Of a stretch of 64,000 nt of DNA, positions 27,001 through 30,000 are shown one piece after another. Every line of letters begins with the position of its first letter. Position 1 is the stretch's first letter. Origin of the DNA: Escherichia coli. Lineage in GTDB: Bacteria; Pseudomonadota; Gammaproteobacteria; Enterobacterales; Enterobacteriaceae. The stretch is from assembly GCF_002854065.1 (NCBI RefSeq), contig NZ_CP024150.1. One strand, given 5' to 3'. Position numbers: made by a program.

Positions 27001-30000
27001 AACCAGATCTCCCCGCGCGTTTGCGGCTGCGCGCCCGCAAGCGCCTTCAGCAGCGTGGATTTTCCCGCCCCGTTTTCCCCCAGCAGGGCGTGGATTTCTC
27101 CTGGCCCGACGGTCAACTGGGCATTGCTCAGCGCCCAGACGCCGGAAAAGCTTTTCGCCAGCTCGGTCACTTTCAGTAAGGGTTGCGACATCAGTCTGCT
27201 CCTCCTCATGATGAGCCGCTAAAGGCGGCTCGGGACATATTAGTTACCGGCCTCACCGATACGCTCAGCCTGCTGCAGGTTCTCTTTGGTGATAAGCGTT
27301 GGCGGGTAGTCCGCGCCGGTGATGGCTTTCTTCTCACGCACGTTGGCCACCAGCTGGCTCATTGCCGTTTGCACCGCAAAGCCCGGGCGCTGATCCGCAG
27401 TCACCGCCAGCCAGCCGTCACGCACGCGAGCCAGAGCTTCAGGAACCGCATCAAAGCCAGTCACCAGGATTTCACCGGGTTTCACGCCCTGGCTCTGCAG
27501 GGCTTCAATCGCCCCCAGCGCCATATCATCGTTGGCGGAGAGGATCACCTGCGGGCGTTTCGGCAGTGACGGCAGAACGCTTTCTACAATGCGCATCCCT
27601 TCAGAACGCATCCAGTTGCCGGTCTGATCGGCGACGATCTTGTATTTATCGCCACCCGCTTTGAGGCTGTCGCGGATCCCTTTAGTGCGTTCGATGTTGG
27701 AAGAGGAGCCCGGCTGACCGGTGAGCAGAATGATCTCTGCCCCGTCGGGGAATTTGCTTTTCACGAAGTCGCCAATCGCCTGGCCGCCTTTGTAGTTGTT
27801 GGCGCCAAAGTGCGGTACTTTCTTCTGACTGTCGACGGAGCGGTCAAGGGTGACCACCGGCAGCTTCGCATCCTGAATTTCATCCACCGCGCTGGAGACC
27901 GCGTTCACGTCGTTCGGGGAGACGATGAGCCCCTGCGCTCCGCGGGTGATGGCGTTTTCCAGGTCAGCCACCTGTTTTGGTGAACTGCCCTGCCCGTCCA
28001 GCACCTGCAACTTGACGCCCATCTCTTTTGCGGCTTTCACCGCCGTGCGCTGCATGTGAACTTCAAACGGCATCGCCAGGTTTGGCGTACTGAAAACAAT
28101 TTGCTCGTTTTCGGCGAGGGCGGCCCCGGACGTCATGGCGATGAGGGCGGCTAAGATCAGCTTTTTCATTATTATGTCTCTCTGTGTAGGGTAGTTGTGT
28201 TTAGAGAACGATCTCGCGCTGGCTACGCAGCGACTCCAGCGCTTTATCCGCGAGGTACAGCGCACGTTCACCATCATCGCCGCTGCAGTCAGGCACCGCT
28301 TCGCCGCGCAATACCGCAACAAAGTGTTCCCATTCCGCGGCGTAAGCGGATTTGTAGCGCTGCAGGAAGAAGTGTTCCGGCAGCGCGCTGGTGCAGCCCT
28401 GTTTGCCGTAGTGCTGCACCTGATTTTCAAGAATATTGCCCGCGCAGAGCAGCCCTTCAGAGCCGTGTAGCTCCAGGCGCTGGTCGTAGCCGTAAGAGGA
28501 GCGGCGGCTGTTGACGATGGTCGCCATTGCGCCGGAGGCATATTTCAGAACGATAAATGCGGTGTCGATGTCCCCCGCCTCGCCAATCGCCGGATCCACC
28601 AGGTTACTGCCCTGGGCATACACTGACACCGGCTCTTCACCCATGATGAAGCGCGCCATATCAAAGTCGTGAATGGTCATATCGCGGAACATGCCGCCAG
28701 AGACGCGGACATACTCCGCCGGTGGTGGAGACGGATCGCGGGAGATGATCAGCAGCGATTCCGGTTTGCCGATACGCCCGGCCTGGGCGTCGGTTTTCAC
28801 GCGGCGGAACTGTGGGTCAAAGCGGCGGTTAAAGCCGATGAACAGCGGCACGTCGTACTCTTTAACCACTTTCAGGCAGTCGCGCACGCGGGCGAGGTCG
28901 AGGTGTACCGGTTTTTCACAGAAGATGGCTTTGCCATGACGGGCGGCCATTTCAATCAGGTCCGCATGGGTATCGGTCGCCGAGGCGATCAGCACGGCAT
29001 GAACGTCTGGGTCTGTCATCGCCTCAATCAGGCTCTGCTGGCGGGCCTGATACTGCGTGGCGAGACGGGTGGCAAATTCCTGATTCGGGTCAACCACGGA
29101 CCAGAGTGTGGTCGCGCTGTGGCTGGCGATGTTAGCTGCATGTACCTGGCCAATTCGGCCAGCGCCCAGTAAAGCAATGTTAAACATAACGGCTCCCGGT
29201 GTTGGTGAATGCTGTGAACTAACGGCCCTTTAAATAAAACATTTATTTCATTTTTATTAATAGTGAAAATTATGTTTTTGAGTGTGGGTTAACACTTTTG
29301 AGATGAATGAGATAAATTTTGTTATCAATCTCACAACATGGGAGGGAGGACATCTTCCCCTCACCCTACCCCTCTCCCAGTGGGAGAGGGGTAGGGTGAG
29401 GGGAAAAAGAAAAATGAAATGAAAATTTCGTTACGGCGGGAAATCTTAATACTGACGTGCTTTTTTCACCTGCGCCTGCGTCTGCGCCGCGGCTTCGCGC
29501 ACGGCAGGAGACGCAGCTACCTGCGCATCGCCGGTTCGCCACCAGGAGGCGTAATCGTGGGTCATGGTCTTCGGCAGCACTTTGATGTCCAGCAGCGTCG
29601 GGCCTGGATGGGCGCGGGACGCCTCCAGCGCTGCCAGCAGGCTTTGCTCATCATGTACCCGCCACGCGCGACAGCCGTAGCTTTCCGCGTTTTGCGCGAA
29701 ATCGACCTTCACCAGCGGCCCGTCAAGCTGCCCGGTCTGCGGGTTACGGTGGCGGTTTTCCGTGCCGAAGCTTCCCATTCCATGACCCATCTGCAGGTTA
29801 TTAATGCAGCCAAAGCTGGCGTTATCAAACAGCAGAACGGTGATTTTAATGCCCTCCTGCACCGCGGTTTGCAGCTCGGAGTGCAGCATCATGTAAGAGC
29901 CATCCCCCACCATGGCGTAAACCGGTTGCCCGGGTCGGGCAAGCTTCGCGCCAAGCGCCGCCGCAATCTCGTAACCCATGCAGGAGTAACCGTACTCCAG

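Follow-up and report, generated by a model that had tools for sequence, protein, structure and literature searches.

A 51-bp perfect palindrome in the spacer between iolD and iolG of a plasmid-borne iol cluster of Escherichia coli is most probably (about 0.8) a copy of the BoxC/PIT/TM_ECO repeat, in which an inverted pair of units has collapsed through a 44-bp loss and whose effect on its surroundings is passive. The most striking noncoding feature of this cluster would then be no dedicated regulator but a dispersed repeat of a known family. The BoxC family itself is known already, and the iolD-iolG copy adds a member to it. All coordinates given below refer to the window, which is the whole 64,000-nucleotide stretch of contig NZ_CP024150.1 that was analyzed.

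Structure of the palindrome and its locus

The first-pass annotation had described a 47-bp near-perfect palindrome at 29357-29403, with 23-bp arms and a 1-nt center, situated between iolD and iolG and adjoining an AT-rich stretch. The structure is real and is in fact larger and perfect, because a repeat finder places it at 29355-29405, with two 25-nt arms (29355-29379 and 29381-29405) that are 100% complementary around the single central base G29380. Gene calls and profile matches agree with the reported position. The 258-bp spacer (29188-29445) contains the entire palindrome, which begins 40 nt past the iolD stop codon and ends 167 nt ahead of the iolG start. AT-rich sequence is present on both sides, with a GC content of 0.33 at 29406-29445 and 0.35 at 29188-29354, compared to 0.65 for the palindrome and 0.60-0.62 for the genes. 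The features of the locus are as follows.

29446-31371, minus strand: iolD (TIGR04377, 932 bits), upstream of the palindrome along transcription
29406-29445, minus strand: AT-rich 40-nt stretch from the iolD stop to the palindrome, containing the conserved flank AACGAAATTTTCATTTCATTTTTCTTTTT
29355-29405, both strands: four-block BoxC/TM element, a perfect palindrome by arm complementarity, fold energies and z-scores
29394-29402, plus strand: outer G block GGGTGAGGG, the TM_ECO third-strand block (consensus from PMC4666352)
29382-29390, plus strand: inner G block GGGAGAGGG, 3' arm of the core hairpin and purine strand of a potential triplex
29370-29378, plus strand: inner C block CCCTCTCCC, 5' arm of the core hairpin
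29358-29366, plus strand: outer C block CCCTCACCC, which pairs (Watson-Crick) with the outer G block; also the complement of the third block of the minus-strand motif
29370-29402, plus strand: full TM_ECO consensus match (motif scan; expected by chance 0.00)
29358-29390, minus strand (iol sense strand): full TM_ECO consensus match (expected 0.00); the central hairpin is common to the motifs of both strands
29320-29335, minus strand (sense): candidate CRP-like site TGTGAGATTGATAACA, resembling TGTGA-N6-TCACA by eye, 19 nt downstream of the palindrome
28201-29187, minus strand: iolG (TIGR04380, 445 bits), downstream of the palindrome and followed by ABC-transporter genes

The blocks are arranged in the order CCCTCACCC-TAC-CCCTCTCCC-AGT-GGGAGAGGG-GTA-GGGTGAGGG, such that the inner and outer G blocks together provide four G-runs. 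When transcribed from the sense strand, the palindrome is predicted to form an RNA hairpin of -56.5 kcal/mol (z = -8.6), and each DNA strand yields a hairpin of about -31 kcal/mol (z = -9.2 to -9.4). None of 200 shuffled sequences reaches its folding energy, and the 21-nt core of the arms occurs in the 64-kb window only at the palindrome, once per strand (0.01 expected). Thus, the palindrome is not explained by chance. Nor is it an assembly artifact, since six complete E. coli plasmids contain the unaltered 51-mer, as do independent assemblies with SNPs close by.

Membership in the BoxC/PIT/TM_ECO family

The TM_ECO consensus is 5'-CCCTCNCCC N3-6 GGGNGAGGG N3 GGGNGAGGG[G/T/C/-]-3', and a normal BoxC unit consists of three 9-nt blocks, namely CCCTCNCCC, a loop, GGGNGAGGG, a 3-nt loop and a second GGGNGAGGG (Holder et al. 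2015, PMC4666352, which cites the BoxC papers of the 1990s and Hoyne & Maher 2000/2002). Besides the two overlapping matches within the palindrome, the 64-kb window contains no match to this consensus and no other copy of the palindrome; a lone GGGAGAGGG at 58872-58880 has no partner blocks. A genome search for further copies had been proposed at first pass as a check, their absence being named as grounds for refutation. The window contains none, but matches to the 51-mer are present in 5399 of 5426 complete E. coli genomes, at a median of 27 places per genome, and this ground for refutation therefore fails genome-wide. The typical match spans 37 of the 51 nt, which corresponds to three blocks. 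The median agrees with the 23 TM_ECO copies listed for K-12 (PMC4666352), which supports the family identity. The four-block architecture also recurs: at least 120 stretches of reference genomes contain it, including copies in Enterobacter cloacae (among them DSM 26481), Enterobacter sp. Ag1, Cedecea and Pseudocitrobacter, and it is present at other loci in at least 36 E. coli chromosomes, with a perfect palindrome in strain 05-3629.

When checked, the genomic matches in E. coli and Enterobacter share the block structure, and an inverted pair between hrpB and mrcB of K-12 can be read directly from the sequence. Placing GGGTGAGGG antiparallel to GGGAGAGGG/CCCTCTCCC gives, again by direct reading, nine canonical purine-motif triads (seven G.G-C, one T.A-T and one A.A-T), and TM_ECO elements are of the class II purine-motif triplex type (PMC4666352).

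Origin of the short allele

The IolG of nine chromosomes (4.7-5.5 Mb; eight assembled as such, the other as a 144-kb contig) is identical to that of the window, and these chromosomes share 98.0-98.8% identity with the window across 6 kb, with an iolD-iolG spacer of 301-302 bp. These are called Enterobacter here on the basis of WP_013098257.1, which we take to be a protein of the Enterobacter cloacae complex. Their long spacer allele reads CCCCTCACCC-TAA-CCCTCTCCC-ACT-GGGAGAGGG-(23 nt)-CCCTCTCCC-TGA-GGGAGAGGG-CCG-GGGTGAGGGG, and therefore comprises two inverted units with a 23-nt spacer, the first an inverted TAA(TTA)-loop unit and the second a direct CCG-loop unit. The allele in the window falls short of this by exactly 44 bp, matching the spacing at which direct repeats recur in the long pair. 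Approximately 18 distinct spacer alleles were seen in total, from lineages whose iolD 3' ends diverge by up to 16%, and nearly all of them hold the inverted pair or its decayed remnants. The 258-bp allele was seen only in one plasmid lineage of E. coli, into which the iol genes had been introduced. On a Yersinia ruckeri plasmid, the same conserved flanks enclose no such motif. A search for a chromosomal donor of the short allele found none, and every contig found to encode the window's exact IolD or exact sugar-binding protein is 200 kb or shorter.

These alleles suggest a history in which the ancestral spacer carried two inverted BoxC units with their third blocks outermost. A loss of 44 bp would leave both units sharing one central hairpin, with complementary 3-nt loops (TAC/GTA), and the product would be a perfect palindrome with 25-bp arms that fits the consensus on both strands. 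Inverted TM_ECO pairs elsewhere lose internal parts and leave a stable stem-loop (Holder et al., PMC4666352). The loss was most likely caused at the structured repeat by slippage during replication or by fold-back template switching. Simple slippage was rejected as the full explanation: it produces the right 44-bp length but predicts TAA/CCG loops rather than the observed TAC/GTA, and thus fold-back copying, or a donor allele whose loop is GTA (as in L153), is required in addition. The short allele presumably then moved with the iol gene block that was captured by a conjugative E. coli plasmid and has been inherited stably since. If so, the locus offers a clean natural case in which a pair of inverted structured repeats collapses, with a loss equal to the 44-bp direct-repeat spacing yielding a perfect palindrome that is stable on a conjugative plasmid.

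Passive repeat or functional element

Either as DNA or as RNA, a single strand of the palindrome would fold into a very stable stem-loop, whose effect is probably passive. Because the four-block form supplies the third G block with a Watson-Crick partner from its own strand, a hairpin or cruciform should outcompete the triplex; the modeled energies (about -31 kcal/mol for the 25-bp hairpin versus -9.4 kcal/mol for the core hairpin alone as DNA) likewise suggest that the 25-bp hairpin would dominate. As the palindrome does not qualify as an intrinsic terminator (see below), transcripts of iolD are expected to continue through it. At most, it may act as a structured barrier to decay by 3'-exonucleases, upstream of a separate iolG promoter. 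The existence of that promoter is suggested by the candidate CRP-like site, which is kept in all orthologous alleles fetched. A promoter scan also reported a weak promoter-like site at 29289-29318 on the plus strand, antisense to the operon. As far as sequence can indicate, nothing shows a role for the palindrome as a regulator of the inositol genes.

A functional intercistronic RNA element, such as the stabilizer suggested at first pass, is unlikely. The 25-bp stem could block 3'-exonucleases and stabilize the iolA-iolD message, as REP does at malE-malF, or cleavage by RNase III could uncouple iolD from iolG. The hairpin of -56.5 kcal/mol lies only 40 nt past the iolD stop, and it is probably transcribed because no terminator intervenes. 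Furthermore, CCCTCTCCC..GGGAGAGGG repeats in Enterobacter sp. 638 are often located at gene 3' ends (Taghavi et al. 2010, PMC2869309). The repeat blocks are also conserved across diverged lineages in which the spacers vary: pairwise identity among orthologous alleles is 0.79-1.0 for the hairpin blocks versus 0.41-0.66 for loops and spacers, and one allele group carries a compensatory pair, CCCTCTTCCC with GGGAAGAGGG. This pattern could reflect structural selection at iolD-iolG, which counts against a passive effect; gene conversion among genomic copies would yield the same conservation. Against a dedicated function, the repeat is genome-wide and has no link to gene function, orientation or set distance (Holder et al., PMC4666352), the copies in several orthologous alleles are decayed or truncated, and the Yersinia locus lacks the element.

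Somewhat less credible is an action at the DNA level, whereby a cruciform, triplex or G-quadruplex beside AT-rich DNA alters supercoiling or stalls replication, creating a rearrangement hotspot and perhaps tuning the iolG promoter. The site is hypervariable, as judged from its roughly 18 alleles, slippage deletions, decayed copies and the 44-bp collapse, and TM_ECO sites have been linked to raised local variability (Holder et al., PMC4666352). G-rich halves like GGGAGAGGGCCGGGGTGAGGG of Klebsiella pneumoniae form G-quadruplexes in vitro (PMC11170735), and the DNA hairpin has a folding energy of -31 kcal/mol per strand. However, DMS footprinting in vivo gave no sign of a stable triplex (PMC4666352). 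All plasmid copies examined have the identical palindrome despite nearby SNPs, and hence it is not visibly unstable now.

It is improbable that the four-block palindrome, rather than being the debris of a pair, is itself the true unit of a repeat family that extends across phyla and is maintained or disseminated by some machinery or by selection. The same 9-nt blocks are repeated several times within single genomes of Enterobacterales, Pseudomonas, Deltaproteobacteria, Nitrospirae, Chloroflexi, cyanobacteria, Armatimonadetes, Planctomycetota, Verrucomicrobia and Omnitrophica, and in some genomes they are nested within longer inverted repeats. Were the palindrome such a unit, the retention of blocks while spacers drift would be consistent with selection on an RNA 3'-end or processing element, or on a DNA-structure element, with the plasmid allele as a hardened version of it. 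If the minority reading is true, BoxC function, a question that dates from the 1990s, becomes testable at one inducible locus by using long, short and deleted alleles.

The proposal of an attenuator made at first pass finds no support, and it is very improbable that the palindrome is a Rho-independent terminator or attenuator at which iolA-iolD transcription stops or is modulated ahead of iolG. A very strong GC-rich stem shortly past a stop codon invites this interpretation, and a termination role was presumed for the related Enterobacter repeats by Taghavi et al. (PMC2869309). However, the stem lacks a trailing T-run on both strands, and the palindrome is therefore no intrinsic terminator. 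In the sense orientation, the T-run TTTTTCTTTTT, within 29406-29445, precedes the stem and AAGATGTCC follows it; on the plus strand, the stem is followed by A-runs, AAAAAGAAAAA. A scan of 28900-29700 returned 0 terminator-like sites, and there is neither a leader peptide nor an alternative pairing. Comparison with Rfam 15 gave only subthreshold matches, to hairpin models of eukaryotic miRNAs and to Phe_leader. The best is the mir-4433 model (45.6 bits versus a threshold of 77), a generic long-hairpin match, and the Phe_leader match (26.5 bits versus 55) is likewise taken as generic hairpin noise. Earlier functional tests of PIT elements found no promoter or terminator activity, in ordinary three-block elements rather than a perfect 25-bp stem (Holder et al. 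2015, PMC4666352).

Finally, an operator for a dimeric regulator such as IolR can be given almost no weight: the perfect dyad lies near a regulated promoter region and the RpiR-family repressor gene iolR is nearby (33079-34032), but this sequence recurs across many phyla and at dozens of unrelated loci within a genome, its layout varies among orthologous iol loci and it is missing from the Yersinia locus, while the invariant parts of the spacer are AT-rich segments and not the palindrome. The paper on Salmonella IolR gives no operator consensus (PMC5349611).

Comparison with known systems

Rho-independent terminators share with the palindrome a strong GC-rich stem-loop past a stop codon and differ in having a U-tract, which is absent here from both strands. 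REP/PU/BIME elements of E. coli are likewise short, GC-rich, intergenic palindromes with many dispersed copies, often past gene 3' ends, and they can form RNA stem-loops that may protect upstream mRNA. The REP consensus is distinguished by a GTAG/CTAC head and by BIME arrangements. We know of no RAYT transposase that associates with the BoxC element. Membership in this group was considered and rejected, as the sequences are unrelated: the CCCTCACCC/CCCTCTCCC blocks of the arms bear no resemblance to the GTAG/CTAC-tagged consensus, which the BoxC element lacks. The BoxC block sequences are also absent from a survey of GTAG/CGTC REPs (Di Nocera et al. 2013, PMC3733652). The initial label of a REP-like element is therefore apt for a dispersed extragenic palindromic repeat with many enterobacterial copies, but the family is BoxC/PIT/TM_ECO and not REP/PU/BIME.

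The G-rich arm of the palindrome, GGGAGAGGGGTAGGGTGAGGGG, has four G-runs and differs from KP-PGQ-5 of K. pneumoniae, GGGAGAGGGCCGGGGTGAGGG, essentially in one loop (review PMC11170735). In the palindrome, however, the adjacent C-rich arm complements the G-rich arm over its full length, and thus a duplex or hairpin competes directly with the quadruplex. The CCCTCTCCCXX(X)GGGAGAGGG repeats of Enterobacter sp. 638 (Taghavi et al. 2010, PMC2869309) are closer relatives, with the same core hairpin (the loop is ACT/AGT in the copy in the window), the same organism group, a location at gene 3' ends and frequent occurrence in twos or threes; the description covers the 9-bp core hairpin only and not the outer blocks or the pair structure.

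The match to BoxC/PIT/TM_ECO is closest of all. The consensus is fitted exactly, and the family is intergenic, multicopy in E. coli and very abundant in Enterobacter, with inverted pairs of TTA-loop and CCG-loop units, local hypervariability and pairs that collapse to hairpins. The copy in the window departs from the usual form in that two units overlap fully on opposite strands to give a four-block perfect palindrome, its GTA loops are of neither K-12 type, and its third-strand block can form Watson-Crick pairs within its own strand. It also resides on a plasmid, whereas Holder et al. (PMC4666352) reported no copies on plasmids, phages or transposons; its location reflects having been carried along with captured chromosomal DNA.

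Structure and setting of the palindrome

The iol genes of the window are arranged as follows, and the minus strand is their sense strand.

33079-34032, plus strand: iolR (RpiR family)
32888-31383, minus strand: iolA/mmsA
31371-29446, minus strand: iolD (TIGR04377, 932 bits)
between iolD and iolG: the iolD-iolG spacer, 258 bp
29187-28201, minus strand: iolG (TIGR04380, 445 bits)
after iolG, minus strand: ABC transporter, Gfo/Idh/MocA oxidoreductase, iolC, iolE and iolB

The first-pass annotation was correct in placing a long palindrome between iolD and iolG, although its size (47 bp, with 23-bp arms) was underestimated. 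A repeat finder places the arms at 29355-29379 and 29381-29405, and because these 25-nt arms are 100% complementary around one base (G29380), the palindrome is 51 bp long and perfect. Its 21-nt arm core occurs once per strand at this site and nowhere else in the 64-kb window (0.01 expected). On the sense strand, the iolD stop codon is followed by 40 AT-rich nt ending in TTTTTCTTTTT, then by the palindrome, 167 AT-rich nt and the iolG start. The AT-rich DNA noticed earlier beside the repeat is thus real, with a GC content of 0.33 and 0.35 in the two flanks versus 0.60-0.62 in the neighbouring genes. The palindrome itself reads CCCTCACCC-TAC-CCCTCTCCC-AGT-GGGAGAGGG-GTA-GGGTGAGGG.

Computed folds show that the 25-bp stem can form from either strand, as DNA or RNA. 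The RNA stem of the sense strand has a folding energy of -56.5 kcal/mol (z = -8.6) and the DNA stem of either strand about -31 kcal/mol (z about -9), values equalled by 0 of 200 shuffles in each case. As DNA, the core hairpin formed by the two inner blocks alone yields -9.4 kcal/mol, compared with -31 kcal/mol for the full stem.

In reverse complement, the window matches 18311-82310 of E. coli plasmid p2017.06.05CC_1 (NZ_AP027791.1) at 99.99% identity. The block from iolR to iolB is an insertion in this conjugative plasmid (about 19800-34900 in the window; 47399-64022 in NZ_AP027791.1), with IS3/IS30 remnants at its iolR end and a truncated, frameshifted umuC at its iolB end. The exact IolD and the exact sugar-binding protein of the window are confined to contigs no longer than 200 kb (423 and 846 blocks, respectively, in public assemblies), which points to a widely spread plasmid lineage.

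Some other features of the plasmid were also observed. Two inverted 1.5-kb segments (17716-19221 and 39182-40690; 84% identical) correspond to an intact umuD/Y-family polymerase region and a truncated second umuDC copy adjoining the iol block. The annotation also contains two ardA genes. A "cholera enterotoxin subunit B" pseudogene with an internal stop (57993-58370), annotated in the matching plasmid record, lies close to type II secretion/type IV pilus genes and an IS3 copy.

Identity of the repeat

TM_ECO, formerly called BoxC or PIT element, has the consensus 5'-CCCTCNCCC N3-6 GGGNGAGGG N3 GGGNGAGGG; it is listed at 23 places between genes in K-12 and is very abundant in Enterobacter (Holder et al. 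2015, PMC4666352). This consensus is matched exactly at 29370-29402 (plus strand) and 29358-29390 (minus strand) and nowhere else in the window. Since both strands match, the palindrome comprises two opposite-strand units with one common central hairpin. When GGGTGAGGG is laid antiparallel on GGGAGAGGG, all triads are canonical purine-motif triads by direct reading. Rfam holds no family for the element and returned only sub-threshold matches to generic hairpins.

The genome search proposed in the first-pass annotation does reveal further copies. Matches to the 51-mer are present in 5399 of 5426 complete E. coli genomes, at a median of 27 places each, and the typical match covers 37 of 51 nt, i.e., three blocks. 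At the sequence level, the element has every defining BoxC/PIT/TM_ECO feature examined. The suggestion of a REP-like element holds in that this is a dispersed palindromic repeat, but identity with REP/PU/BIME is rejected.

The four-block layout (outer C, inner C, inner G and outer G blocks) was sought as CCCTCNCCC-NNN-CCCTCNCCC-N3-6-GGGNGAGGG-NNN-GGGNGAGGG in one genome per species. It was found in at least 120 stretches (L014-L133), for which copy numbers are lower bounds. Among the matches listed are Enterobacterales, several Pseudomonas species (at least 4-6 copies each), Syntrophaceae and other Deltaproteobacteria, Nitrospirae, Chloroflexi, cyanobacteria, Armatimonadetes, Planctomycetota and Verrucomicrobia. 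One genome bin, Omnitrophica bacterium RIFCSPLOWO2_12_FULL_44_17 (MHFR01 contigs, L094-L115), carries at least 23 copies, many of them nested in a longer inverted repeat, roughly TTTAGCGTTTTGAAGTGATTAACAAATTC-[palindrome]-GCGATAGTCAACTTCAGAACGCTAAA, and this unit resembles MITE-like or REP-like elements, with a BoxC-type core at its centre. Many four-block copies are perfect save for the central loop, and the P. fragi palindrome is prolonged by CAAAAGC/GCTTTTG flanks. At least 36 E. coli chromosomes have a four-block copy at other loci (E <= 1e-3), and strain 05-3629 has the perfect palindrome GCCCTCACCCCAACCCTCTCCCTGTGGGAGAGGGTTGGGGTGAGGGC. Given so many copies elsewhere, the four-block palindrome is a recurrent form of the family rather than one unique to iolD-iolG.

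Origin of the short spacer allele

Nine chromosomes (4.7-5.5 Mb) encode the exact IolG of the window; eight are assembled as chromosomes and the ninth as a 144-kb contig. Over 6 kb they share 98.0-98.8% identity with the window, and their spacer measures 301-302 bp. On the sense strand, this long allele reads CCCCTCACCC-TAA-CCCTCTCCC-ACT-GGGAGAGGG-[23-nt spacer]-CCCTCTCCC-TGA-GGGAGAGGG-CCG-GGGTGAGGGG, so that an inverted unit with a TTA loop precedes a direct unit with a CCG loop. The same A-plus-B pairing has been described in K-12 (Holder et al., PMC4666352), in which the hrpB-mrcB interval contains an inverted pair by direct reading.

A further 26 loci came from metagenomes, scanned with the conserved segment downstream of the repeat as anchor. 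Overall, about 18 distinct spacer alleles were distinguished. Their lineages diverge by up to 16% at the iolD 3' end, and nearly all alleles have the pair. The right unit is decayed in one fetched stretch (L137). Of 5426 complete E. coli genomes, 45 have a chromosomal iol locus (L001; e.g., NZ_CP031706.1, 3244375-3245627), with the left BoxC unit kept and the right unit decayed to CCCTCCCCCCCTTGTAATGGAGGGAC. This locus is about 92% identical to the plasmid iolG 5' end and adjoining spacer, so the iol genes of E. coli come from two independent sources. In metagenome contig Ga0268356_10054 (L155), the left unit is GGGGAGAAAAGACGG where sister alleles have GGGGAGAGGGAGAAAAGACGG; here 6 nt were lost by slippage between short GAGA repeats, which is a further small rearrangement at the site. 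A Yersinia ruckeri plasmid has the conserved flanks, and the TM_ECO-type motif is absent from it.

Among the alleles examined, the 258-bp form is confined to the plasmid lineage. It is present in seven complete E. coli plasmids and on every contig read that encodes the exact IolD (24 of 423 blocks; one spacer checked) or the exact sugar-binding protein (24 of 846 blocks), and the palindrome is intact in plasmid copies despite SNPs nearby. No chromosomal donor was found, as contigs with these exact proteins never exceed 200 kb in any block.

Parsimony across alleles indicates that the short allele is derived. In the long allele, the two GGGAGAGGG direct repeats are spaced 44 bp apart, as are the two CCCTCTCCC, and the short allele is shorter by exactly this length, which points to slippage between repeats. 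Simple slippage is rejected as a complete account, because it predicts TAA/CCG loops whereas the window has TAC/GTA. TAA/CCG loops occur in four-block copies of E. cloacae DSM 26481, Enterobacter sp. Ag1 and Cedecea. The TAC/GTA loops might have arisen from a donor allele with a pre-existing GTA loop (L153, another fetched stretch, has one) plus one substitution, from fold-back template switching in which one arm was copied from the other, or from correction of an imperfect palindrome. Inverted TM_ECO pairs are known to lose internal parts and leave a stable stem-loop (Holder et al., PMC4666352), and collapse of the pair is probably best explained as a replication accident.

Possible functions

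The best account of the element is that it is a passive structured repeat. Transcripts from iolD would run through the stem, which at most might act as a barrier to 3'-exonuclease decay after iolD. A dedicated mRNA-stabilising or processing role is possible, though we consider it unlikely. Across orthologous alleles, pairwise identity is 0.79-1.0 in the hairpin blocks and 0.41-0.66 in loops and spacers, and one allele group has the compensatory change CCCTCTTCCC with GGGAAGAGGG. This pattern could reflect selection for the structure at iolD-iolG, and it fits homogenisation against the many copies elsewhere in the genome equally well.

A role at the DNA level, through instability or supercoiling, seems somewhat more doubtful still. 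PIT elements blocked DNA polymerase in vitro, and TM_ECO sites are unusually variable among strains (PMC4666352). Isolated strands form triplexes in vitro, and in vivo footprinting gave no evidence of a stable triplex (PMC4666352). In the four-block form, a hairpin or cruciform should outcompete the triplex because the third G block finds its Watson-Crick partner within its own strand. In K. pneumoniae, the motif has G-rich halves that form G-quadruplexes in vitro (PMC11170735).

Termination or attenuation, the latter among the initial proposals, is very improbable. A termination role has been presumed for 100 CCCTCTCCCXX(X)GGGAGAGGG repeats in Enterobacter sp. 638, often at gene 3' ends (Taghavi et al. 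2010, PMC2869309), but PIT elements had neither promoter nor terminator activity and left RNA polymerase unaffected (PMC4666352). Here, the stem lacks a trailing T-run on both strands, and a scan across the palindrome region found no terminator, so an intrinsic terminator is rejected. That the palindrome is an operator for a regulator is hardly credible.

The sequence TGTGAGATTGATAACA (29320-29335, minus strand), 19 nt downstream of the palindrome, is by our reading CRP-like (9 of 10 positions of TGTGA-N6-TCACA) and is conserved in every orthologous allele fetched. Together with a -10-like CATAAT (29269-29274, minus strand), it suggests that iolG has its own, putatively CRP-dependent promoter. 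Two AT-rich 22-nt segments, AAACATTTATTTCATTTTTATT (29237-29258) and AAGAAAAATGAAATGAAAATTT (29407-29428), are 82% complementary inverted copies that bracket the palindrome and the presumed promoter and lie in the best-conserved spacer segments of the orthologous alleles. They are candidate binding sites for a regulator, and the gap between them is about four helical turns shorter after the 44-bp collapse.

Comparison with known TM_ECO elements

The palindrome belongs to a known type of dispersed repeat and is particular in three respects. Its two units overlap completely, which makes the palindrome perfect; its loops are GTA; and it is plasmid-borne, whereas Holder et al. (PMC4666352) observed no TM_ECO on plasmids. 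The plasmid location is explained by carriage along with captured chromosomal DNA. Also, the four-block layout spans a wider range of organisms than the 262 proteobacterial genomes reported for TM_ECO.
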